Shown here: positions 29,280 through 45,896 of the stretch, piece by piece
Layout of the letters: the number at the start of each line of letters is the position of its first letter
How positions within the stretch are numbered: position 1 is the first letter of the stretch
Assembly: GCF_003019035.1 (NCBI RefSeq)
Contig: NZ_CP027447.1
Direction: 5' to 3' (one strand)
DNA: 64,000 nucleotides
Source: Escherichia coli
GTDB taxonomy: Bacteria > Pseudomonadota > Gammaproteobacteria > Enterobacterales > Enterobacteriaceae
Notes under the pieces: generated by a model
What the model was told of the DNA's origin: nothing
The model's input: only the letters and a program-made list of their open reading frames with translations
Databases searched by the model: none
Position numbers and translations under genes: made by a program

Positions 29280-31328
29280 TCACACCAGACCGCAAACGGT
29301 TAGCAGTAAATCAATGACTTTGATACCAATAAACGGCACCAGCAGCCCACCCAGACCGTAAATCCATAAGTTACGGCGCAACATGGCAGAAGCGGTAAGC
29401 GGTTTATAACTCACGCCTTTTAACGCCAGGGGAATCAAAAAGACGATAATCAAGGCGTTGAAAATCACCGCACTGAGAATGGCGGAGTCGGGCGAATGCA
29501 GGCGCATGATGTTCAGCGCATTTAACTGCGGATACGTTGCCGCGAACGCCGCCGGAATAATGGCGAAGTATTTCGCCACATCGTTGGCAATGCTGAAGGT
29601 GGTCAGCGAGCCACGGGTCATCAGCATCTGTTTGCCAATATGTACCACCTCGATCAACTTGGTCGGGTTGGAGTCGAGATCCACCATATTGCCCGCTTCT
29701 TTCGCCGCCTGAGTACCAGAGTTCATCGCCACCGCGACATCTGCCTGCGCCAGCGCCGGAGCATCGTTGGTGCCGTCGCCGGTCATCGCCACCAAACGGC
29801 CTTCCGCCTGATACTGACGAATCAATGCCAGCTTGGCCTCCGGTGTCGCTTCGGCGAGAAAATCATCGACACCCGCTTCCGCAGCTATCGCGGCGGCAGT
29901 CAGACGGTTATCACCGGTAATCATCACCGTTTTAATGCCCATTTTACGCAGCTGGGCGAAGCGCTCTTTAATACCGCCTTTGACGATATCTTTCAGCGCA
30001 ATAACGCCCAGCACACGAGAACCTTCCACCACCACCAGCGGCGTAGCTCCCTGACGCGCAACCTGATCGACTTTTTGATCAACATCGGCAGGGAAGTGAC
30101 CACCGTTAGCCTCAACATGGCGGCGAATGGCATCGACAGAACCTTTACGGATCATGCGGTTGTCGATGTTGATCCCGCTCATCCGGCTTTGCGCAGTAAA
30201 CGGTACAAAGGTGGCGTGAAGCGACTGCACATCGCGCTCACGCAGGTTAAAACGCTGCTTGGCGAGGATCACAATACTGCGGCCTTCCGGCGTTTCATCA
30301 GCCAGCGAAGCCAGTTGTGCGGCGTCAGCCAGCGTTTTTTCATCCACGCCCTGCGCAGGGATAAACTCCGACGCCTGACGGTTACCAAGTGTGATGGTGC
30401 CGGTTTTATCCAGTAGCAGAACGTCAACGTCACCTGCCGCTTCAACTGCACGTCCGCTGGTGGCAATCACATTCGCGCCCAGCATCCGACTCATCCCGGC
30501 GACGCCAATCGCTGACAACAGGCCGCCAATAGTGGTTGGGATCAGACAGACCAGCAGCGCCACCAGTACCGTTACACTCACTGCATTACCGCCCCACGCG
30601 GAAAACGGCCATAGCGTGGCGGTTGCCAGTAAAAAGACGATAGTCAGGGCAATCAGGAGAATGGTCAGGGCAATCTCGTTCGGCGTTTTGCGTCGCTGTG
30701 CGCCTTCCACCATTGCGATCATCCGATCCAGAAATGTCTCGCCGGGGTTAACGCTGCACTCAATCACCAGCCAGTCAGAAAGAATACGCGTGCCGCCAGT
30801 GACGGAGGCAAAATCGCCGCCGGATTCACGGATCACCGGTGCCGATTCCCCGGTGATGGCGCTTTCATCGACCGATGCGCCCCCTTCAATGACTTCACCA
30901 TCGCAGGGGATAATATCGCCAGCTTCTACCAGCACGATGTCACCTTTACGCAGTTGAACGGCAGGAACTTTGTCCGCCGCAGCGCCATATTTCGGCTCAC
31001 GCAGCTTGCGGGCAAAGGCAGTTTTTTTCACCCCTTTCAGACTGTTGGCCTGCGCTTTACTGCGGCCTTCTGCCAGCGCCTCGGCGAAATTAGCGAACAG
31101 TACGGTGACCCACAGCCAGCCGCTAATTGCCGCGCTAAACAGCGCATTGCCAGGCATCGCCCCGCTTGCCATCGCGATGCTAATACAGGTGGTCAGCAGA
31201 CTGCCGATCCAGACGATAAACATCACCGGATTGCGCCATTGCGCCTGCGGGTTTAATTTTTTCACCGCTTCTTTCAGCGCCTGAACGACAAGTGTTGGTT
31301 CGAATAGCGCCAGTTGTTTACGACTCAT
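29280..31328 (-). CDS. kdpB: K+-transporting P-type ATPase subunit B
   Basis: 682 aa; DKTGT phosphorylation motif and [11 protein letters not shown]. Confidence 0.95.
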
Positions 31329-31350
31329 ATTCAGTGCTCACTCAATATCA

Positions 31351-33024
31351 TCAGGAGAGATATTCCGCCACCGGACCAAGCGCCAGGGCAGGGATAAAGG
31401 TCAGTGCGCCAACCAGCAACACGGTGCCGATTAACAGGCCAACAAACAGCGGGCCGTGCGTTGGCAATGTGCCGGAGCTGGCGGGTTGGCTCTTTTTACT
31501 CACCAGCGAACCGGCAATTGCCATCACCGGGATAATCACCCCGAAGCGCCCGACAAACATGCACAACGCCAGTAAACAGTTCCAGAATGGAGAGTTGGCG
31601 CTTAATCCGGCAAAGGCGCTGCCGTTGTTGTTAGCGGCGGATGACACGGCGTACAGCACTTCGCTAAAACCATGCGGGCCAGGGTTGAGCATGGCGCTAC
31701 GTCCGGCGTCGGTCATCATTGCCAGCGCCGCGCCCATCAGCACCAGCGTCGGGGTGACCAGAATCGCCAGTGCAGTCAGTTTCATCTCGCGTACGTCGAT
31801 TTTTTTACCCAGATATTCCGGTGTACGACCAATCATCAGCCCGGCAATAAACACCGCCAGCAGGACAAACAGCATCATGCCGTAAAGGCCGGAACCGACG
31901 CCGCCGAATACCACTTCACCAATTTGCATCAACCACATCGGCACCATGCCACCAAGAGCGGTAAACGAATCATGCATCGCAATCACCGCGCCGCAGGAAG
32001 CCGCCGTAGTCACGACCGCAAACAGGCTACTGACCAGCACGCCGAAACGGCTCTCTTTACCTTCCATATTGATGCTGCTGTCCGCGCCGAGCGCCAGCAG
32101 ATGAGGATTACCCTGAACTTCTGCCCACATCACTACGCCTACGCAGATGACAAAAATCACCGACATCGCCCACAGCAACATGCGCCCCTGGCGACGATCG
32201 CCCGCCACTTCACCAAAGGCAAAGCACAGCGCTGTTGGGATCAAGAAAATCGCCAGCATTTGCACGAAGTTGGTCAGTGCGGTTGGGTTTTCAAACGGAT
32301 GCGACGAGTTGGCATTAAAGAAGCCACCGCCGTTAGTACCGAGCATCTTGATCGCTTCCTGAGAAGCTACTGGCCCCATTGGTAACAGCTGTTGCGCTCC
32401 TTCAATGGTCGTCACAGCCTGATAAGGCTGAAAGTTTTGCAGTGCACCTTGTTGAATAAAAAACAGTGCGATCAACAATGCCACAGGGGCTAACACCCAT
32501 AACGTGATGCGTAGCAGATCGACCCAGGCATTACCGAGCGTGCTCATGCTCTGGCGGGTAAACGCACGGATGAGGGCAAAAATCACCGCAATCCCGCTGG
32601 CGGCAGAAAGAAAGTTTTGCACCGTTAAGCCCGCCATCTGGCTGAAATAGCTCAACGTGGTTTCACCGCTATAAGATTGCCAGTTGGTATTCGTGACAAA
32701 GCTGACGGCGGTATTGAGCGCCAGATCCCACGACAGCCCCGGCAACTGCTGTGGATTAAGCGGCAAATAGTGCTGACCGAGCAACATAAAAAACAGCACC
32801 GCCAGCCCCAGCATATTCAGGCCAAGAATGGCTGAGAGATACTGCTTCCAGTTCATCTCGCGGTCAGAGACGCCAAGCGCGCTAAAGAGTACGCGTTCAA
32901 CGCCCGTCGTACCAGGAAGAGGAATATCATTAATCAGCCGCGCCAGCCCGCTGCCTAAAGGACGTGCCAGCACCATTAACACCAGTAAAAACGTGGCGAT
33001 CAGTAAGAACCCTTGCGCAGCCAT
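31351..33024 (-). CDS. kdpA: K+-transporting ATPase subunit A
   Basis: 557 aa from [16 protein letters not shown]; track ORF begins at an upstream ATG, trimmed. Confidence 0.9.
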
Positions 33025-33101
33025 CAGAACGCCTCCGCATTGATCAGGGCATAAACCAGATAACCCAGTAATAAAAACACCAGCAACACGCCTGCACTCA
33101 C
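33024..33101 (-). CDS. kdpF: kdpF-like small hydrophobic peptide, 25 codons, GTG start
   Basis: Own translation (V/M)[29 protein letters not shown] 6 nt upstream of GTG; stop overlaps the kdpA start. Confidence 0.5.
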
Positions 33102-33173
33102 AGTGCACCTCCAGTGGCCGAAAAGTGATATCGGAAGGGTAGAATTCTGGCTGCAAAGATTTCGCAAAAATCT

Positions 33174-33203
33174 GCGGGCGGGGTGTAAAAAAAGTATAAA
33201 AAT
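33174..33203 (-). promoter_or_regulatory. KdpE operator of the kdpFABC promoter
   Basis: Minus strand reads CATTTTTATACTTTTTTTACACCCCGCCCG, matching the KdpE-protected site as I recall it. Confidence 0.65.
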
Positions 33204-33413
33204 GGCAAAAGCCATGATTTAACTGATGGTTAGTATTAATTTAACTTTTGTGTAACTTAATTACAGTGTGAATGTAAATAAACCATCAATAAGCAAAAAT
33301 AAGTGGTCGGATGAGTAGTAAAATTACACAAAAGGCGGTACTATTTTCATCAGATAAACAAATTCATTTTTCCGGTGCCATTCACCGGGTAGATACAACA
33401 GGGGGAGAAAAGT

Positions 33414-33620
33414 ATGGAACTTTACAGAGAATATCCTGCATGGCTTATCTTTTTACGCCGTACTTATGCGGTTGCAGCGGGCGTTCTGGCGCTGCCTTTC
33501 ATGCTTTTCTGGAAAGACCGCGCCCGCTTTTACAGCTACCTGCACCGCGTCTGGTCGAAAACCAGCGAGAAACCGGTGTGGATGGATCAGGCCGAAAAGG
33601 CAACTGGTGATTTTTACTGA
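33414..33620 (+). CDS. ybfA: DUF2517 small protein
   Basis: 68 aa [20 protein letters not shown]... Confidence 0.8.
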
Positions 33621-33642
33621 TTGCTGAGTTCTGAATACATTG

Positions 33643-33675
33643 AAAACCGCCAGCGGAAACGCTGGCGGTTTTTTT
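33643..33675 (+). terminator. ybfA terminator
   Basis: AAAACCGCCAGCG-GAAA-CGCTGGCGGTTTTTTT. Confidence 0.7.
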
Positions 33676-33863
33676 GTATCAGGAAGATGTTCAGAGGAAT
33701 ATTTAGACACCGTTATACCAATCGAAACATATATTCATAAAACATATATAAATATTTTCCTAATTGTTTCTATCTGACGGATATCTCACTTAAGGCTTTC
33801 TTATAAATCTGTAGGGTTTCGCCTGTCAGCAGACAAATAACCCGATAAAACAAGGATGAGCAG

Positions 33864-36800
33864 ATGAGCGGAAAACCGGCGGCGCGTCAGGGCGACATGA
33901 CGCAGTATGGCGGTAGCATTGTTCAGGGTTCAGCCGGGGTACGTATTGGTGCTCCCACCGGCGTGGCCTGTTCGGTGTGCCCCGGCGGGGTGACGTCCGG
34001 CCATCCGGTCAATCCGCTGCTCGGTGCGAAGGTCCTTCCCGGCGAAACCGACCTTGCCCTGCCCGGCCCGCTGCCGTTCATCCTCTCCCGCACCTACAGC
34101 AGTTACCGGACAAAAACGCCCGCGCCGGTGGGGAGCCTCGGCCCCGGCTGGAAAATGCCCGCGGATATCCGCTTACAGCTGCGCGATAACACACTGATAC
34201 TCAGTGATAACGGCGGCAGGAGCCTGTATTTTGAGCACCTGTTTCCCGGTGAGGACGGTTACAGCCGCAGCGAGTCACTCTGGCTGGTGCGCGGCGGCGT
34301 GGCGAAACTGGATGAAGGTCACCGGCTGGCCGCACTCTGGCAGGCGCTGCCGGAAGAGCTTCGCCTGAGTCCGCATCGTTATCTGGCGACGAACAGTCCG
34401 CAGGGGCCGTGGTGGGTACTCGGCTGGTGTGAGCAGGTGCCGGAGGCGGATGAGGTGCTGCCCGCGCCGCTGCCGCCGTACCGGGTACTGACCGGGCTGG
34501 TGGACCGCTTCGGGCGCACACAGACGTTTCACCGTGAGGCTGGCGGTGAATTCAGCGGCGAAATCACCGGCGTGACGGATGGTGCCGGGCGTCACTTCCG
34601 GCTGGTACTGACCACGCAGGCGCTGCGGGCAGAAGAGGCCCGGCAGCAGGCCATTTCCGGCGGGACGGAACCGTCCGCTTTTCCTGATACCCTGCCGGAC
34701 TACACGGAATATGGCCGGGACAACGGCATCCGCCTGTCCGCCGTGTGGCTGACGCACGACCCGGAATATCCGGACAACCTGCCAGCCGCGCCGCTGGTAC
34801 GCTATGGCTGGACGCCACGCGGCGAACTGGCGGCGGTGTATGACCGCAGCGGCACACAGGTGCGCAGCTTTACTTACGATGATAAATACCGGGGCCGGAT
34901 GGTGGCGCACCGTCACACGGGCCGGCCGGAAATCCGTTACCGTTACGACAGCGACGGGCGGGTGACAGAACAGCTAAACCCGGCAGGCTTAAGCTACACG
35001 TATCAGTATGAGAAAGACCGCATCACCATCACCGACAGCCTGGACCGCCGTGAAGTCCTGCACACGCAGGGCGAAGGCGGGCTGAAGCGGGTGGTGAAAA
35101 AGGAACACGCGGACGGCAGCGTCACGCAGAGTCAGTTTGACGCGGTGGGCAGGCTTAAGGCACAGACGGATGCCGCAGGCCGGACGACTGAGTACAGCCC
35201 GGATGTGGTGACGGGACTCATCACGCGCATCACCACGCCGGATGGCAGGGCATCGGCGTTTTACTATAACCACCACAGCCAGTTAACGTCAGCCACCTGG
35301 CCTGACGGGCTGGAAATACGCCGGGAATATGATGAATCCGGCCGTCTGATTCAGGAAACCGCCCCTGACGGCGATATCACCCGCTACCGTTATGATAATC
35401 CACACAGTGACTTCCCCTGCGCAACGGAGGATGCCACCGGCAGCCGGAAAACCATGACGTGGAGCCGTTACGGTCAGTTGCTGACCTTCACCGACTGTTC
35501 CGGCTACCAGACCCGTTATGACCATGACCGCTTCGGGCAGATGACGGCGGTGCACCGCGAGGAAGGCCTGAGCCAGTGCCGCGCATACGACAGCCGTGGA
35601 CAGTTAATTGCGGTGAAAGACACGCAGGGCCATGAAACGCGGTATGAATACAACGCCGCCGGTGACCTGACCGCCGTCATTGCCCCGGACGGCAGCAGAA
35701 ACGGGGCACAGTACGATGCGTGGGGAAAGGCCGTCCGTACCACGCAGGGCGGGCTGACCCGCAGTATGGAATACGATGCTGCAGGACGGGTCATCCGCCT
35801 GACAAACGAAAACGGCAGCCACACCACCTTCCGTTACGATGTACTCGACCGGCTGATACAGGAAACCGGCTTTGACGGCCGCACACAGCGTTACCACCAC
35901 GACCTGACCGGCAAACTTATCCGCAGCGAGGATGAGGGGCTGGTCACCCACTGGCACTATGACGAAGCAGACCGCCTCACGCAGCGCACCGTGAATGGCG
36001 AAACCGCAGAGCGGTGGCAGTATGACGAACGCGGCTGGCTGACAGGCATCAGCCATCTCAGCGAAGGGCACCGGGTGACGGTGCATTACAGGTATGATGA
36101 GAAAGGCCGCCTGACCGGTGAGCGCCAGACGGTGCATCACCCGCAGACGGAAGCACTGCTCTGGCAGCATGAAACCAGACATGCGTACAATGCGCAGGGG
36201 CTGGCGAACCGCTGTATACCGGACAGCCTGCCCGCCGTGGAATGGCTGACTTATGGCAGTGGTTACCTGGCAGGGATGAAGCTGGGTGACTCGCCCCTGG
36301 TGGAGTACACCCGCGACCGCCTGCACCGGGAAACGCTGCGCAGCTTCGGCCGTTATGAACTCACCACCGCTTATACCCCTGCCGGGCAGTTACAGAGCCA
36401 GCACCTGAACAGCCTGCAGTATGACCGCGATTACACCTGGAACGACAACGGCGAACTCATTCGCATCAGCAGCCCGCGCCAGACCCGGAGTTACAGCTAC
36501 AGCGACTCCGGCAGGCTGACCGGCGTTCACACCACCGCAGCGAACCTGGATATCCGCATCCCGTATGCCACGGACCCGGCAGGTAACCGCCTGCCCGACC
36601 CGGAGCTGCACCCGGACAGCACCCTCAGCATGTGGCCGGATAACCGTATCGCCCGTGACGCGCACTATCTTTACCGGTATGACCGTCACGGCAGGCTGAC
36701 GGAGAAAACCGACCTCATCCCGGAAGGGGTTATCCGCACGGATGATGAGCGGACTCACCGGTACCATTACGACAGCCGGCACCGGCTGGTGCACTACACG

Positions 36801-38063
36801 CGGACACAATATGCAGAGCCGCTGGTCGAAAGTCGCTATCTTTACGACCCGCTGGGCCGCAGGGTGGCAAAACGGGTGTGGCGGCGTGAACGGGACCTGA
36901 CGGGCTGGATGTCGCTGTCACGGAAACCGGAAGTGACCTGGTACGGCTGGGACGGCGACCGGCTGACCACGATACAGAACGACAGAACCCGCATCCAGAC
37001 GATTTATCAGCCGGGGAGCTTCACGCCACTCATCAGGGTCGAAACTGCCACCGGTGAGCTGGCGAAAACGCAGCGCCGCAGCCTGGCGGATGCGCTTCAG
37101 CAGTCCGGCGGCGAAAACGGTGGCAGTGTGGTGTTCCCGCCGGTGCTGGTGCAGATGCTCGACCGGCTGGAAAGTGAAATCCTGGCTGACCGGGTGAGTG
37201 AGGAAAGCCGCCGCTGGCTGGCATCGTGCGGCCTGACGGTGGCGCAGATGCAAAACCAGATGGACCCGGTGTACACACCGGCGCGAAAAATCCACCTGTA
37301 CCACTGCGACCATCGCGGCCTGCCGCTGGCGCTTGTCAGCACGGAAGGGGCAACAGAATGGTGCGCAGAATACGATGAGTGGGGCAACCTGCTGAATGAA
37401 GAGAACCCGCACCAGCTGCAGCAGCTCATCCGCCTGCCGGGTCAGCAGTATGATGAGGAGTCCGGCCTGTATTACAACCGCCACCGCTATTATGACCCGC
37501 TGCAGGGGCGGTATATCACTCAGGATCCTATTGGGCTGAAGGGGGGATGGAATTTTTATCAGTATCCGTTGAATCCGGTTCAGTATATAGATTCAATGGG
37601 ACTGGCATCAAAATATGGACACTTAAATAATGGCGGATATGGAGCGAGACCCAACAAACCGCCTACGCCCGATCCAAGTAAATTGCCAGACATAGCGAAA
37701 CAATTAAGACTGCCATATCCTATTGACCAGGCCAGTAGTGCGCCTAATGTTTTCAAAACATTCTTCAGAGCATTAAGCCCTTACGACTACACACTGTATT
37801 GCAGGAAGTGGGTAAAACCAAATCTGACTTGTACGCCACAGGATGATCCCCAGTATCCAGGGATGGATACAAAGACAGCAAGTGATTACCTGCCACAGAC
37901 AAATTGGCCAACAACTCAATTACCACCAGGATATACTTGTGCAGAACCCTATTTATTCCCAGACATTAATAAACCCGATGGGCCAGCAACAGCAGGGATA
38001 GATGATTTGGGTGAAATTTTAGCTAAAATGAAACAGAGAACATCGAGAGGAATAAGAAAATGA
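33864..38063 (+). CDS. rhsC: Rhs-family polymorphic toxin (N-terminal PAAR-like region, YD-repeat shell, DPIGL core end, ~175-aa variable C-terminal tip)
   Basis: 1399 aa; PAARQGD motif at residues 5-11; GC-rich repeat core; DPIGL at 37523-37537; sharp GC drop after it; located after ybfA as rhsC is in K-12. Confidence 0.9.
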
Positions 38064-38629
38064 AAAGAATTTTGTTCTTTTTGCTGATGATATTTGTTAG
38101 TTTTGGTGTTATAGCTGATTGCGAAACACAAGCTAAAGATCAAGATTGCTTTACCATTTTCACTAAGGGTACTATTTTTTCCGCGTTTCCTGTCTTAAAT
38201 AATAAAACCATATGGAGATGGTATCAGAATGAGGACATAGGTGAGTATTATTGGCAAACAGAACTTGGTATATGTAAAAATAACAAATTCACACCAAGCG
38301 GGGCGAGACTCTTAATTCGCGTCGGATCACTACGCCTTAATGAAAATCATGCAACCAAAGGAACGTTGCAGGAGTTGCTAAATACAGCAGAAAAAACGGC
38401 GTTTCTCGGCGATCGGTTTAGAAGTTATATAAGAGCGGGTATCTATCAAAAAAAGAGCAGTGATCCAGCTCAGTTGTTGGCAGTCCTTGATAATTCAATC
38501 ATGGTTAAATATTTTAAAGATGAGAAGCCAACTTATGCTCGAATGACAGCACATCTCCCGAACAAAGATGAGTCTTACGAATGTTTAACAAAAGTACAGC
38601 ATGAACTGCTTCGTAGTGAAGAAAAATAA
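38060..38629 (+). CDS. predicted cognate immunity protein of the Rhs tip (signal-peptide bearing)
   Basis: 189 aa; start overlaps the rhs stop (ATGA); N-terminal [19 protein letters not shown] hydrophobic signal; AT-rich like the toxin tip. Confidence 0.55.
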
Positions 38630-38797
38630 AATCTCTTCCTGAGAAAATAAATTAACTATTCGAAAAAATATGTTCTTAATGGGTATCCAGGTACACCAGA
38701 AGGTCGATTTGGAAAAATGGATTCCGATGGTAAGAATATCATATATTCTGAATGTAATGTTTTACCCACAACTTTTGAGATTCGATAGGTGTAGAGC

Positions 38798-39100
38798 ATG
38801 AGAAACTCACTAATATTACTTATTATGATATTGTTTACAATATCACACTCAGTATTTGGAAAAGAAAATTCAGTGGAAATTTTAGTAAATAGTCGTGAAA
38901 TGGCTTTGGAATTATCATATGTTTACATTAAATATGTATACGGGAAAGAAAAAGCAGAATTTCAGAAACCATATAGTATTACAGATGACAATAATTGTTG
39001 GAAAATCGAGGGAAAACAACCGAAGACGTTAGGAGGAAATTTTACAATACTAATAGCGAAAAAAGATGGGCAAGTGTTGAATGTAATACACACAAAATAA
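38798..39100 (+). CDS. small secreted protein, likely orphan immunity protein
   Basis: 100 aa with signal peptide MRNSLILLIMILFTISHSVFG; AT-rich; lies directly after a start-less toxin-tip-like reading frame (38651-38788). Confidence 0.45.
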   Translation: MRNSLILLIMILFTISHSVFGKENSVEILVNSREMALELSYVYIKYVYGKEKAEFQKPYSITDDNNCWKIEGKQPKTLGGNFTILIAKKDGQVLNVIHTK

Positions 39101-39279
39101 TCCACTGTACAGTCGATTCAAATATTTTACCAAGGTGTGTTTTGTAACAATTTTGTGTACAATATGACTCTACATATCGACGAAAAAACCACTTGATTTG
39201 ACAGGAACACATTCAAAAAAATTTCTTTATTCATTTCAGGAGCGATTTTCATCTGTTACTTGAAGTATCTGTGAGATTA

Positions 39280-39645
39280 AGTGACTCCCCCTAACGTCGT
39301 ACTAAATAGTAATTACTGTCCATACCGGGAGCAGTATTCGGCGCTCCCCACATGCAGCAGAATAACCGCATCAGCGAAGATGTATTGTATTTTTACTATC
39401 ACAATGTGTACGGACGGTTTATGGAAAAGAATGAAAATTAGATACGCGATGGGGCGGCAGGTTACACGGTTATCACTACGATAGCCAATACTGGCTGGTG
39501 CATTACCGCCGTGAACAATAGGACGCCGTACTGCTGGAAATTTCTTACCTTTATGACTCCCCGCGCCGCCGTATTGGGAAACGGGAAGCAATCAAGATGA
39601 GGCTGATATAATGTGCGGAATGCCTGAGTATTTTTAGAATAGGGG
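39280..39645 (+). pseudogene. decayed fragment of a divergent Rhs core
   Basis: GC-rich island in an AT-rich stretch; frames read YHYDSQYWLVHYRREQ* and LYDSPRRRIGKRE, resembling the core segment [12 protein letters not shown]...[12 protein letters not shown] of the intact rhs, with stops and frameshifts. Confidence 0.5.
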
Positions 39646-39651
39646 GGTAAT

Positions 39652-40053
39652 ATGTTTGATAGAATATATCTTGGTGATCGAGCAATAAAAAAAATTGAAT
39701 TTTATTTATGGACTAAACAAATTAGAATTCAGGTTAATTTAATCTCAAGGATAGCCTATGGTACAACAGAATGGAATTTTTATGATAATGAAGACTTAGA
39801 AGATGGTTATTTGGTATTTTCAGATGTTAGTTTCTTCAATATAACTCCTAATGGCTCTATTCCTGATGATTATATAATTTCAATAATTACAGATAATGTC
39901 AATGTTGAATATTTTGAATCAACTATAGTTGCAGTTGGACAAATTCCAAATACAAATTCTGGAGACATTGATAATATTGGTGAGTGTCAAATTTTCATCA
40001 GGTATAAACACAGCTGGATTGAGAATAAATTCAAAGAAAAAATAATTGAATAA
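39652..40053 (+). CDS. hypothetical cytoplasmic protein, possible orphan immunity protein
   Basis: 133 aa; GGGGGG Shine-Dalgarno; very AT-rich; sits immediately after the decayed Rhs fragment. Confidence 0.45.
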   Translation: MFDRIYLGDRAIKKIEFYLWTKQIRIQVNLISRIAYGTTEWNFYDNEDLEDGYLVFSDVSFFNITPNGSIPDDYIISIITDNVNVEYFESTIVAVGQIPNTNSGDIDNIGECQIFIRYKHSWIENKFKEKIIE

Positions 40054-40145
40054 CCATGTTATGTATAGACATTTTAGATGGAACGAACCAGAGGAAGGCA
40101 TGCCTCCGACTTGGGTTATATGGGCACGGAGTTTTAGTGTAGTGA

Positions 40146-40400
40146 ACTCAACGACGCAAACCGAATAACCTGCCGCTGGCGCTTATCAGCACGGAAGGGG
40201 CAACAGAATGGTGCGCAGAATACGATGAATGGGGCAACCTGCTGAATGAAGAGAACCCGCACCAGCTGCAGCAGCTCATCCGCCTGCCGGGTCAGCAGTA
40301 TGATGAGGAGTCCGGCCTGTATTACAACCGCCACCGCTATTATGACCCGCTGCAGGGGCCAGGGAAAGATCACGTAACGCTGCTTTTTTGTACTAAATAA
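40146..40400 (+). pseudogene. start-less orphan Rhs core-end fragment with alternative 13-aa tip
   Basis: 40170-40358 is nearly identical to 37319-37507 of the intact rhs ([63 protein letters not shown]), then diverges to [13 protein letters not shown]; in-frame stop at 40143 and no start codon. Confidence 0.7.
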
Positions 40401-40503
40401 TTCGCATTTTATGTTTAAAAATTGAGATATTCCTCATTACCTAAAGCTGTTTTTCATTGCTTATACATGATCAAATACTCCTTACATAATTAAGGAGAAC
40501 AAA

Positions 40504-41352
40504 ATGGAACTTAAAAAATTGATGGAGCATATTTCTATTATCCCAGATTACAGACAAGCCTGGAAAGTGGAACATAAATTGTCTGATATTCTACTGTTGA
40601 CTATTTGTGACGTTATTTCTGGTGCAGAAGGTTGGGAAGATATAGAGGATTTTGGGGAAACACATCTCGATTTTTTAAAACAATATGGTGATTTTGAAAA
40701 TGGTATTCCTGTTCACGATACCATTGCCAGAGTTGTATCCTGTATCAGTCCTGCAAAATTTCACGAGTGCTTTATTAACTGGATGCGTGACTGCCATTCT
40801 TCAGATGATAAAGACGTCATTGCAATTGATGGAAAAACGCTCCGGCACTCTTATGACAAGAGTCGCCGCAAGGGAGCGATTCATGTCATTAGTGCGTTCT
40901 CAACAATGCACAGTCTGGTCATCGGACAGATCAAGACGGATGAGAAATCCAATGAGATCACAGCTATCCCGGAACTTCTTAACATGCTGAATATTAAAGG
41001 AAAAATCATCACAACTGATGCGATGGGTTGCCAGAAAGATATTGCAGAGAAGATACAAAAACAGGGCGGTGATTATTTATTCGCTGTAAAAGGAAACCAG
41101 GGGCGGCTAAATAAAGCCTTCGAGGAAAAATTTCCGCTGAAAGAATTAAATAATCCAGAGCATGGCAGTTACGCAATGAGTGAAAAGAGTCACGGCAGAG
41201 AAGAAATCCGTCTTCATATTGTTTGCGATGTCCCTGATGAACTTATTGATTTCACGTTTGAATGGAAAGGGCAGCCATGGACAGAAAATATCTGGCGTCA
41301 GTCCTTGCGGGGAGCGTGCTTTCGTAATTTTGCCCTGCTACAACAGGATTAA
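40504..41352 (+). mobile_element. ybfD: H-repeat-associated (ISAs1-family) transposase gene, internally deleted derivative (ybfD-like)
   Basis: 282-aa [35 protein letters not shown]... running into an out-of-frame tail; a 16-codon frame (41277-41327, [16 protein letters not shown]) that I recall as the C-terminus of full-length H-repeat proteins lies in another frame. Confidence 0.7.
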
Positions 41353-41412
41353 CTTCACAAACATCATTTGCCAACGTCTACACTTACTCCTGTTAATATC
41401 TCAGGAGCAGTA

Positions 41413-41922
41413 ATGAATCAGCAACGATTTGATGAAAGCACTCTAATCCGTATCTTCGCGCTTTATGAGTTACATCGACTGAAAGAACATGGCTTAACGC
41501 GCGGGGCACTCAACGATTATCACAGCCGCTATAAACTCGTCTTTCTGGCCCATTCCCAGTCCGAGTACCGCAAACTTGGCCCGTTTGTGGCTGATATTCA
41601 CCAGTGGCAAAATCTGGATGACTATTACAACCAGTACCGCCAACGCGTAATTGTTTTGCTTTCTCACCCTGCCAACCGGCGTGATCATACTAACGTTTTG
41701 ATGCACGTTCAGGGTTATTTTCGCCCTCATATTGATTCCACAGAACGCCAGCAGCTGGCTGCGCTTATCGACAGTTATCGCCGTGGCGAGCAACCACTTC
41801 TTGCGCCGCTGATGCGTATCAAACACTATATGGCGCTTTATCCTGACGCCTGGCTTTCAGTGCAGCGTTATTTCGAACTTTGGCCGTGTGTGATTAACTT
41901 GCGCCATTCAGGAGTTTTATGA
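41413..41922 (+). CDS. ybgA: DUF1722 protein co-transcribed with photolyase
   Basis: 169 aa from MNQQRFDESTLIRIF; AGGAG Shine-Dalgarno; stop overlaps the phr start. Confidence 0.85.
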   Translation: MNQQRFDESTLIRIFALYELHRLKEHGLTRGALNDYHSRYKLVFLAHSQSEYRKLGPFVADIHQWQNLDDYYNQYRQRVIVLLSHPANRRDHTNVLMHVQGYFRPHIDSTERQQLAALIDSYRRGEQPLLAPLMRIKHYMALYPDAWLSVQRYFELWPCVINLRHSGVL

Positions 41923-43337
41923 CTACCCATCTGGTCTGGTTTCGCCAGGATTTACGTCAGCACGATAATCTCGCGCTGGCTGCCGCCTGCCGCAATTCGT
42001 CTGCGCGCGTGCTGGCGTTGTATATCGCTACACCACGCCAGTGGGCGGCGCATAACATGTCGCCGCGTCAGGCTGAACTTATCAATGCTCAACTGAATGG
42101 GCTACAAATCGCGCTGGCGGAAAAAGGCATTCCTTTGCTGTTTCATGAAGTGGATGACTTTGCCGCCAGCGTCGAAATAGTTAAACAGGTGTGCGCGGAA
42201 AATCGTGTTACCCATCTGTTTTATAACTATCAGTATGAGGTGAATGAGCGGGCGCGGGATGTGCAGGCTGAGAGGGCGCTGCGTAACGTGGTGTGTGAAG
42301 GATTTGACGACGGCGTGATCCTGCCGCCGGGGGCGGTGATGACTGGCAATCATGAGATGTACAAAGTCTTTACGCCATTTAAAAACGCCTGGCTTAAACG
42401 GCTGCGAGAAGGGATGTCGGAGTGCGTCGCTGCGCCAAAAGTACGTAGTAGCGGATCGATAGATCCCGCGCCATCCATTACGCTGAATTATCCTCGTCAG
42501 CCTTTCGATACTGCGCATTTCCCGGTGGAAGAGAAAGCGGCGATTGCGCAATTACGCCAGTTTTGCCAGAACGGTGCCGGAGAGTATGAGCAACAGCGAG
42601 ATTTCCCTGCGGTAGAAGGCACCAGCCGTTTGTCCGCCAGCCTGGCAACGGGCGGGTTATCGCCTCGCCAGTGTTTGCATCGCCTGTTGGCGGAACAGCC
42701 GCAGGCGCTGGACGGTGGGGCCGGTAGTATCTGGCTTAATGAGCTGATCTGGCGCGAGTTTTACCGTCATCTGATAACGTATTACCCCTCGCTGTGTAAA
42801 CATCGTCCGTTTATTGTCTGGACCGACCGCGTGCAGTGGCAGAGCAATTCCGCGCATTTAAAGGCCTGGCAGGAAGGCAAAACGGGATACCCGATTGTTG
42901 ATGCTGCCATGCGTCAGCTTAACAGCACTGGCTGGATGCATAACCGGCTACGGATGATTACAGCCAGTTTTTTGGTGAAAGATTTATTGATCGACTGGCG
43001 CGAAGGTGAGCGATATTTCATGTCGCAGCTGATTGATGGTGATTTGGCAGCCAATAACGGTGGCTGGCAGTGGGCCGCTTCAACCGGAACCGATGCAGCG
43101 CCGTATTTTCGTATTTTTAACCCGACAACCCAGGGCGAGAAATTTGACCGCGAAGGCGAGTTTATCCGCCAGTGGCTACCGGAACTGCGCGATGTGCCAG
43201 GGAAAGTGGTGCATGAGCCGTGGAAGTGGGCGCAGAAAGCAGGTGTGACGCTGGATTATCCGCAACCGATAGTTGATCACAAAGAGGCAAGGCTGCGAAC
43301 GCTGGCAGCGTACGAAGAAGCGAGGAAAGGAGCCTGA
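41919..43337 (+). CDS. phr: deoxyribodipyrimidine photolyase
   Basis: 472 aa; photolyase N-terminal and FAD-binding domains (WREFY, GWMHNRLRM motifs). Confidence 0.95.
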   Translation: MTTHLVWFRQDLRQHDNLALAAACRNSSARVLALYIATPRQWAAHNMSPRQAELINAQLNGLQIALAEKGIPLLFHEVDDFAASVEIVKQVCAENRVTHLFYNYQYEVNERARDVQAERALRNVVCEGFDDGVILPPGAVMTGNHEMYKVFTPFKNAWLKRLREGMSECVAAPKVRSSGSIDPAPSITLNYPRQPFDTAHFPVEEKAAIAQLRQFCQNGAGEYEQQRDFPAVEGTSRLSASLATGGLSPRQCLHRLLAEQPQALDGGAGSIWLNELIWREFYRHLITYYPSLCKHRPFIVWTDRVQWQSNSAHLKAWQEGKTGYPIVDAAMRQLNSTGWMHNRLRMITASFLVKDLLIDWREGERYFMSQLIDGDLAANNGGWQWAASTGTDAAPYFRIFNPTTQGEKFDREGEFIRQWLPELRDVPGKVVHEPWKWAQKAGVTLDYPQPIVDHKEARLRTLAAYEEARKGA

Positions 43338-43378
43338 TAAAACGCAGCGAGCGTTTTATCAGGTATGGTGCTGGCCTA

Positions 43379-45043
<1,665 letters not shown>

Positions 45044-45130
45044 TTAATATGTCAAAAGATTGGCTATCGACGAACAGGCGAGGTAACGCTATGTTAACGG
45101 TGTAGCTATCAGAATACGGAAGGCGCGAAG

Positions 45131-45874
45131 ATGAAAAACACCGAACTGGAACAACTGATTAACGAAAAACTGAACAGCGCGGCGATTAGTGATTATGCGC
45201 CGAATGGTTTGCAGGTGGAAGGCAAAGAGACGGTGCAAAAAATTGTTACCGGTGTCACCGCCAGCCAGGCTTTGCTCGATGAAGCGGTGCGTCTGGGCGC
45301 GGATGCGGTCATTGTGCATCATGGCTACTTCTGGAAAGGTGAATCTCCGGTCATTCGCGGAATGAAGCGTAACCGTTTAAAAACGTTGCTGGCGAATGAT
45401 ATCAACCTGTATGGCTGGCATCTGCCCCTGGACGCGCATCCGGAGCTGGGTAATAACGCACAACTGGCGGCGTTACTGGGGATCACGGTCATGGGCGAAA
45501 TTGAGCCGTTGGTGCCGTGGGGCGAACTGACCATGCCTGTGCCGGGACTGGAACTGGCCTCCTGGATTGAAGCGCGTCTGGGACGTAAGCCGTTATGGTG
45601 TGGCGATACCGGACCTGAGGTGGTCCAGCGCGTTGCCTGGTGCACGGGCGGCGGGCAAAGTTTTATCGATAGCGCCGCGCGTTTTGGCGTGGATGCTTTT
45701 ATTACTGGCGAAGTTTCTGAACAGACCATTCATTCAGCCCGCGAGCAGGGATTGCATTTTTATGCTGCGGGTCACCATGCCACTGAACGTGGTGGTATTC
45801 GCGCGTTGAGCGAGTGGCTGAATGAAAATACCGATCTTGATGTGACCTTTATTGATATTCCTAATCCTGCATAA
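45131..45874 (+). CDS. ybgI: Nif3-family metal-binding protein
   Basis: 247 aa. Confidence 0.85.
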   Translation: MKNTELEQLINEKLNSAAISDYAPNGLQVEGKETVQKIVTGVTASQALLDEAVRLGADAVIVHHGYFWKGESPVIRGMKRNRLKTLLANDINLYGWHLPLDAHPELGNNAQLAALLGITVMGEIEPLVPWGELTMPVPGLELASWIEARLGRKPLWCGDTGPEVVQRVAWCTGGGQSFIDSAARFGVDAFITGEVSEQTIHSAREQGLHFYAAGHHATERGGIRALSEWLNENTDLDVTFIDIPNPA

Positions 45875-45896
45875 CGAATAATCAGAGGGATCGAAA

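Follow-up and report, generated by a model that had tools for sequence, protein, structure and literature searches.

Internal deletion in the ybfD H-repeat of an Escherichia coli RhsC island and probable retention of the ancestral ybgA-phr promoter core

The H-repeat of Rhs elements (H-rpt) is described as a unit of 1291 bp, of which RhsC contains defective copies. The last H-repeat of RhsC in Escherichia coli K-12 is ybfD (b0706, 'H repeat-associated putative transposase YbfD'), located directly 5' of ybgA-phr, while the copies yhhI (RhsB) and ydcC (RhsE) are intact, each with 1291 bp and a product of 378 aa. Members of the ISAs1 family have short and imperfect terminal inverted repeats of about 14-22 bp. 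Outward-facing or hybrid promoters arising from insertion-sequence ends are known for IS1, IS2, IS10 and others. In this study, a 64,000-nt stretch of E. coli DNA (contig NZ_CP027447.1, hereafter the window) was analyzed, in which an H-repeat copy occupies the same position as K-12 ybfD. The two share the 313-bp deletion junction, the right terminal repeat and a 75-nt spacer. K-12 ybfD carries an extra W254* (TGG-to-TAG; 253 aa) and many private substitutions, whereas the window copy reads to 282 aa. In K-12, a tandem junction with ybfL and ybfQ has left ybfD without a left terminal repeat; the window copy keeps this repeat and abuts an Rhs core fragment. The yhhI and ydcC copies are 96% identical to the window copy over the retained 978 bp and share its terminal repeats, 5' leader and start codon, but the DDE domain of the window copy is missing its C-terminal third. 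Positions 40380-41420 are 100% identical to loci annotated at NCBI as 'ybfD: ISAs1 family transposase, pseudo, missing C-terminus', with ybgA as the next gene. The features of the element are as follows.

40360..41337, + strand: H-repeat (ISAs1 family, ISEc1-type) with a 313-bp internal deletion, from BLAST against the 1291-bp K-12 H-rptB
40360..40377, + strand: left terminal inverted repeat CAGGGAAAGATCACGTAA, complementary to the right end at 14/18 positions
40462..40490, + strand: promoter-like site TATACA-17-CATAAT, 5' of the transposase ORF, from a consensus scan only
40504..41352, + strand: truncated, frameshifted transposase ORF of 282 aa, with its stop 15 nt past the element end
41271..41274, + strand: deletion junction GGAAAGGGC/AGCCATGG, with the breakpoint between 41272 and 41273 made ambiguous by a shared GC
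41277..41327, + strand: out-of-frame last 16 transposase codons (41277-41324) and the original stop, ATGGACAGAAAATATCTGGCGTCAGTCCTTGCGGGGAGCGTGCTTTCGTAA
41320..41337, + strand: right terminal inverted repeat, pairing with the left end and containing the counterpart of the ybgAp2 -10

The intact H-repeat unit, from CAGGGAAAGATCA through TAATCTTGCCCTG, was measured at 1291 bp. The window copy begins at 40360 with the repeat CAGGGAAAGATCA, at the position where the K-12 yhhI and ydcC copies begin to resemble each other, and ends at 41337 (...TTTTGCCCTG), giving 978 bp against the 1291 bp of the intact copies. The original prediction had placed the element at 40430-41412, which is 70 nt short on the left and takes in 75 nt of non-element DNA on the right. 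The terminal inverted repeats at 40360-40377 and 41320-41337 are of the kind expected in the ISAs1 family; an inverted-repeat finder did not return them because their longest exact run is 5 nt. No target-site duplication was found at the element flanks (...CTGCAGGGGC and CTACAACAGG...), and no direct duplication around the intact K-12 H-repeat copies either. Since the intact copies also lack it, the missing duplication is weak evidence against ISAs1 membership. The window copy is not a complete ISAs1 element of ~1.2-1.5 kb with one intact transposase ORF, being 978 bp long and frameshifted. Judged from its sequence, the feature is the already known ybfD locus, a decayed H-repeat copy that forms the last part of the RhsC island. 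It is classed as a defective, not an active, member of the ISAs1 family (H-repeat, ISEc1-type) that cannot encode an active transposase.

BLAST and ungapped comparison aligned positions 1-913 of H-rptB with 40360-41272 of the window (96.5%) and positions 1216-1291 with 41262-41337. Against the two intact K-12 copies, this corresponds to a single 313-bp deletion (312+1 nt) in which element positions ~914-1226 are missing. A GC microhomology is present at the breakpoint, within the imperfect repeats GAAAGGGC / GAAAAGC. An internal deletion of a few hundred base pairs had been proposed from the sequence alone, and both alignment and profile coverage bore this out: comparison with the full-length yhhI and ydcC copies leaves one internal gap, not zero. 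Because 313 = 3x104+1, the reading frame shifts past the deletion. The ORF at 40504-41352 has 256 authentic codons, through G256 of YhhI/YdcC (378 aa), followed by 26 out-of-frame codons, in agreement with the earlier description of ~250 normal codons before a frameshift. Transposase codons 257-360, which make up the C-terminal third of the DDE domain and include the conserved HWHVENKLHWRLD segment, are gone. The coding sequence for the last 16 residues of a full-length protein was rightly reported as present but out of frame: the ATGGACAGAAAATATCTGGCGTCAGTCCTTGCGGGGAGCGTGCTTTCGTAA remnant corresponds to YhhI residues 363-378, and its frame offset, (41277-40504) mod 3, is 2. The ORF product belongs to the ISAs1 transposases by family profile, scoring 291.6 bits with NCBIfam NF033564 (transpos_ISAs1; cut-off 70), but it covers only profile positions 1-229 of 314. 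Pfam PF13808 (DDE_Tnp_1_assoc) is matched in full and PF01609 (DDE_Tnp_1) over 3-139 of 200, whereas YhhI covers the NF033564 and DDE_Tnp_1 profiles in full.

The junction is common to K-12 and nine other sampled alleles spread over the identity range. It lies at ORF nt 765 in K-12 and in the seven or eight further alleles with a locatable ORF start, and an IS1-disrupted allele also contains the junction sequence. Additional lesions are present in 9/10 other alleles (K-12 included), as Y16*, Q18*, E65*, R236*, W254* or an IS1 insertion; the window allele is among the few without an additional stop. The ybfD locus is accordingly classed as an old pseudogene, apparently decaying independently in separate lineages and predicted to yield no functional transposase. 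Its spread was surveyed in 5,426 complete E. coli genomes with a 246-bp probe that covers the deletion junction, the right end of the element and the beginning of ybgA. The tail and the ybgA flank occurred together in one place in 3410/5426 complete genomes; from evenly spaced sampling of the ranking, ~3,000 of these carry the deleted allele and ~400 an O157-type full-length copy. The O157-type copy is a full-length H-repeat that itself has a stop and differs in its flanks on both sides. As an undeleted ortholog of the window copy, the O157:H7 H-repeat was rejected, since 281 bp of the left flank seen in the window are missing there and the right flank measures 82 nt vs 18 nt in the window. 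A different route to the loss of most of the H-repeat is seen in OkiPb01694, in which the symE toxin gene (locus L006, 3649-4010), on the opposite strand, adjoins a ~55-bp remnant of the H-repeat right end with the same flank to ybgA as in the window.

The window is a segment of the E. coli chromosome. The gene order in the window is asnB, nag genes, glnS, fur, pgm, potE-speF, kdpEDCBAF, ybfA and the Rhs element, followed by ybgA-phr, dtpD, ybgI, pxpBCA, nei, gltA, sdhCDAB and sucA. Over window positions 30000-50000, the closest complete genome is that of SCU-301 (99.9%). The boundaries of the island and the DNA abutting the H-repeat involve two features.

33643..33675, + strand: ybfA intrinsic terminator AAAACCGCCAGCG-GAAA-CGCTGGCGGTTTTTTT, after ybfA (33413-33619), at the left edge of the core genome
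40169..40359, + strand: orphan Rhs core-end fragment abutting the H-repeat left end, ~99% identical to the main rhs gene (37319-37509) in the reference strain

The RhsC accessory island extends over ~33676-41374 (~7.7 kb), bounded by the T-run of the ybfA terminator on the left and by the ybgA -10 box on the right, in the same ybfA-ybgA locus as K-12 rhsC, as expected for the distal accessory region of RhsC. Within it the rhs core gene (33864-38063) comes first, followed by ORFs downstream of it, genes for an NTF2-fold immunity protein and a DUF6258 protein, the Rhs core fragment and the H-repeat; orphan modules and the 37-nt spacer also belong to the island. Window positions 37319-37509 return a reciprocal match to the position of the orphan fragment in the reference strain. 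In PGAP annotation, a sequence identical to the orphan fragment is called 'RHS repeat-associated core domain-containing protein, missing N-terminus'. The 191-bp Rhs core end appears to occur as two direct copies, one within the main rhs gene and the other at the left of the H-repeat. Such a direct repeat is a recombination substrate that could swap toxin tips. The cassettes at the ybfA-ybgA site vary among E. coli strains and include Rhs with H-repeat, the symE remnant and CDI-immunity genes.

Between the last base of the element (41337) and the ATG of ybgA (41413) there are 75 nt. The original prediction, which had the element ending within ~60 bp of the ybgA start and fused directly to its ribosome-binding site, does not hold in this respect, as the intervening DNA includes a proximal 38 nt of ancestral ybgA 5' sequence. 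The gap and the operon contain the following features.

41338..41374, + strand: island-derived 37-nt spacer CTACAACAGGATTAACTTCACAAACATCATTTGCCAA, shared with K-12 and OkiPb01694 and partly with O157
41375..41412, + strand: ancestral ybgA 5' region of 38 nt, conserved in five E. coli structural alleles and six outgroup loci
41379-41384, + strand: -10 box TACACT with C at -13, assigned to ybgAp1
41387-41392 and 41402-41407, + strand: CTCCTG/CAGGAG inverted repeat
41403-41407, + strand: Shine-Dalgarno (SD) sequence AGGAG
41413..41922, + strand: ybgA, encoding a 169-aa stand-alone DUF1722 protein (Pfam PF08349, E = 4e-35), its stop overlapping the phr start
41919..43337, + strand: phr/phrB, deoxyribodipyrimidine photolyase, by annotation

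Five E. coli structural alleles were compared: the window, K-12, O157 (full-length H-repeat), OkiPb01694 (~55 bp of H-repeat, symE) and PK8275 (no Rhs, with a CDI-immunity gene upstream). The only sequence common to all five is the 38 nt before the ATG (41375-41412). The 37-nt spacer was not found in the Rhs-less PK8275 or in Citrobacter, and its last 5 nt may already be core sequence. In the six outgroup loci (three from Citrobacter, one from Trabulsiella and two from further Enterobacterales), the gene order is kdpA-kdpF-ybfA-ybgA-phr without an island, and the ybfA terminator lies within about 10-20 nt of CTACACTTA (~10 nt in Citrobacter). In all six, CTACACTTA is located 29-32 nt 5' of the ATG, and the ATG, SD and CTACACTTA box of E. 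coli align base for base with those of the outgroups. A Leminorella locus with a different neighbourhood has the variant CTACACTCT at a similar distance from the ATG. Because the -10, SD and ATG are conserved in outgroups without the island, the island is placed as an insertion between the ybfA terminator and the ybgA-phr -10 box. By this comparison, the conserved -10, leader and SD are older than the island, and ybgA-phr was not deprived of its promoter by the element.

The conserved leader also contains a potential hairpin, CTCCTG-N9-CAGGAG (41387-41407), between the ybgAp1 -10 and the ATG, which would pair with the SD. It is weak in E. coli (z -1.4). One Citrobacter locus (L009) has a compensatory CTTATC/GATAAG hairpin (dG -14.3, z -2.7) and locus L010 has a 7-bp version (dG -15.1, z -4.6), while the other outgroups have no hairpin. 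Since the 5' arm overlaps the expected start of ybgAp1, the hairpin would form only in transcripts begun upstream.

Two promoters of ybgA are already known. In a preprint on sigma-38 modelling, ybgAp1 and ybgAp2 are among 78 RegulonDB sigma-38 promoters with starts from transcription initiation mapping, and both were placed here by the modelled -10 coordinates (NC_000913.2) in its supplementary files. The modelled -10 of ybgAp1 (738191) falls at window position 41380, in the conserved TACACT box, and that of ybgAp2 (738137) at 41326, in the right terminal repeat of the H-repeat. At 41377-41385 the window and K-12 both read TCTACACTT, a sigma-38 -10 that fits the CTAcacT type and has C at -13. 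TTCACA, the -35 region of ybgAp1, is separated from it by a 19-nt spacer and consists of island DNA, through which the island could still alter the strength of this promoter. The -10 of ybgAp2 reads TAAATT in K-12, where it overlaps the transposase stop codon, TAATTT in the window (41325-41330) and TAATCT in intact H-repeats; given the difference from K-12, ybgAp2 may be weaker or inactive in the window. A consensus sigma-70 scan of 40200-42000 returned nothing in the 75-nt gap, and the 19-nt spacer of ybgAp1 lies outside the rules of that scan. Promoter-like sites in the region are no more numerous than in shuffled sequence, and the one at 40462..40490 is a possible source of read-through transcription. 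On the + strand, the stretch from the transposase ORF to ybgA has no predicted terminator-like site. As for expression, ybgA and phrB of O157 Sakai, which has a different island flank, are reported to rise together ~4-5 fold on entry into stationary phase; a study of RpoS regulation included ybgA in its assays; and H-repeat mRNAs of K-12 are detectable and are induced in long-term stationary phase.

Taken together, these results are very probably best explained by ybfD being an H-repeat that suffered a 313-bp loss next to an operon, ybgA-phr, that keeps its ancestral core promoter. An ISAs1-family H-repeat that once measured 1291 bp lost 313 bp, with breakpoints in short imperfect repeats. The deletion may have arisen once, through illegitimate recombination or replication slippage, and then been inherited and spread; the deleted copy, present in many E. 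coli lineages, has since decayed by different nonsense mutations and an IS1 hit. Island DNA replaced only what lay upstream of the ybgA -10, leaving CTACACTTA, the 5' leader, the SD and the start codon in place. Transcription of ybgA-phr would then start mainly at the sigma-S-type ybgAp1, with possible additional transcripts from ybgAp2, a second sigma-S start, and from unterminated read-through of the transposase promoter.

Other readings of the truncated copy were considered. The direction of the change could be reversed, with the short form original and a 313-bp insertion in the 1291-bp copies. The formal symmetry of the alignment is all that speaks for this, while the 313 bp encode ISAs1 profile positions 230-314 and DDE_Tnp_1 positions 140-200, and their absence puts the conserved last 16 codons into another frame, so that this order of events is effectively refuted. 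It is also highly improbable that the truncated ORF (253-282 aa) has been kept because its product still works, either as a transposition inhibitor or as a domesticated DNA-binding factor. The 282 codons are uninterrupted in the window and carry the N-terminal DDE_Tnp_1_assoc domain with a partial DDE domain, more than half of E. coli genomes carry the locus, and mRNA is detected in K-12. In addition, dN/dS over the first 256 codons ranged from 0.11 to 0.29 among window 40504-41271, K-12 ybfD, yhhI, ydcC and the O157 copy, and was 0.21 for a pair of copies sharing the deletion; such values are below the expectation for pseudogenes or a long-dead gene. However, a domesticated truncated transposase was rejected on account of the independent stops or IS1 insertion in 9/10 other alleles, and PGAP labels the alleles pseudogenes. 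The low dN/dS is explicable by gene conversion from intact H-repeats and probably reflects divergence before the deletion together with gene conversion among H-repeat copies.

The remaining alternative to a retained core promoter concerns the operon and follows the original prediction, by which ybgA-phr may depend on element-internal or read-through promoters. In its strong form, the operon was cut off from its native promoter and depends substantially on ybgAp2 or on read-through from the transposase promoter. Several observations point in this direction: the modelled ybgAp2 -10 within the right terminal repeat, the lack of a predicted terminator from the ORF to ybgA, the island origin of everything 5' of about -15 of ybgAp1, and the transcription of K-12 H-repeat genes with their stationary-phase induction. 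Against it, the CTACACTTA -10, leader and SD are kept across Enterobacterales and in E. coli PK8275 and OkiPb01694, which are cited as lacking the H-repeat. Moreover, a sigma-38 start has been mapped for ybgAp1, and the -35 region usually matters little for sigma-S promoters; in O157, despite its other flank, ybgA and phrB are still induced together in stationary phase; and the SD-sequestering hairpin would form in the very transcripts begun upstream. Substantial dependence on the element is thus considered unlikely. The idea of an element-internal promoter was partly right, and already documented, in that ybgAp2 lies in the terminal repeat and no terminator is predicted before ybgA; the loss of the operon's own promoter did not stand, because the ancestral one is kept.

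With the ancestral core promoter retained, a milder influence of the island is conceivable. The island edge is only 4-9 nt 5' of the conserved -10, and a hybrid promoter, in which a mobile upstream half together with the H-repeat ybgAp2 drives photolyase, would make stationary-phase photolyase and YbgA strain-specific according to the island allele. This proposal is tentative and rather doubtful. If true, stationary-phase levels of YbgA and photolyase would be set by whether a strain carries the deleted or the full-length H-repeat, the symE remnant or the CDI-immunity cassette; variable mobile DNA directly 5' of the ybgA -10 could in this way cause strain differences in photolyase expression. 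The locus resembles known insertion-sequence-end promoters in that the modelled ybgAp2 -10 lies in a terminal repeat and faces the operon, and in that the upstream half of ybgAp1 is inserted DNA. Unlike those cases, ybgA keeps an ancestral -10 and leader, and the element has no known activation of a silent gene. Nothing here is new in kind, as ybfD is annotated as an H-repeat remnant in K-12, NCBI flags it as a pseudogene and RegulonDB lists two ybgA promoters. The useful outcome is a clarification, namely that the promoter of the photolyase operon was not removed by the element.

The first gene of the operon has a history of its own. RudS genes, which encode fusions of TudS/DUF523 and DUF1722, adjoin photolyase genes (PMC11417400). 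Most relatives of the stand-alone YbgA are likewise TudS-DUF1722 fusions. The ybgA gene corresponds to the DUF1722 half, and in other Enterobacterales the gene between ybfA and phr is longer, with TudS-like N-terminal sequence and the same -10, leader and ATG. Unlike RudS, YbgA of E. coli lacks the entire TudS part, a loss that is internal to the gene and does not stem from the island or the H-repeat. A 5' truncation of ybgA by the island was rejected, as the ATG, SD and -10 of E. coli are orthologous to those of Citrobacter and of the long TudS-containing gene; likewise, the resemblance of an upstream STLTPVNI to the Citrobacter N-terminus STRIPVGI is due to chance, according to DNA alignment. 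The product encoded between ybfA and phr has 169 aa in E. coli, 158 in Trabulsiella, 184-189 in Citrobacter and 259-282 or more in other Enterobacterales, and the Citrobacter product keeps only MS(T/K)RIPVGIHTC before DUF1722. Comparison of these genes suggests that E. coli ybgA is an in-place reduced TudS-DUF1722 (rudS-like) gene, with stepwise loss of the desulfidase domain beside the photolyase gene.

Elsewhere in the window, comparison with DETEC-S792 gave 100% identity across ybfD (40380-41420) and about 97.4-97.7% elsewhere (~47 kb). Relative to that genome, ~4.7 kb between abrB and gltA is missing at window position ~50618, including most of the ybgO-ybgP-ybgQ fimbrial operon.
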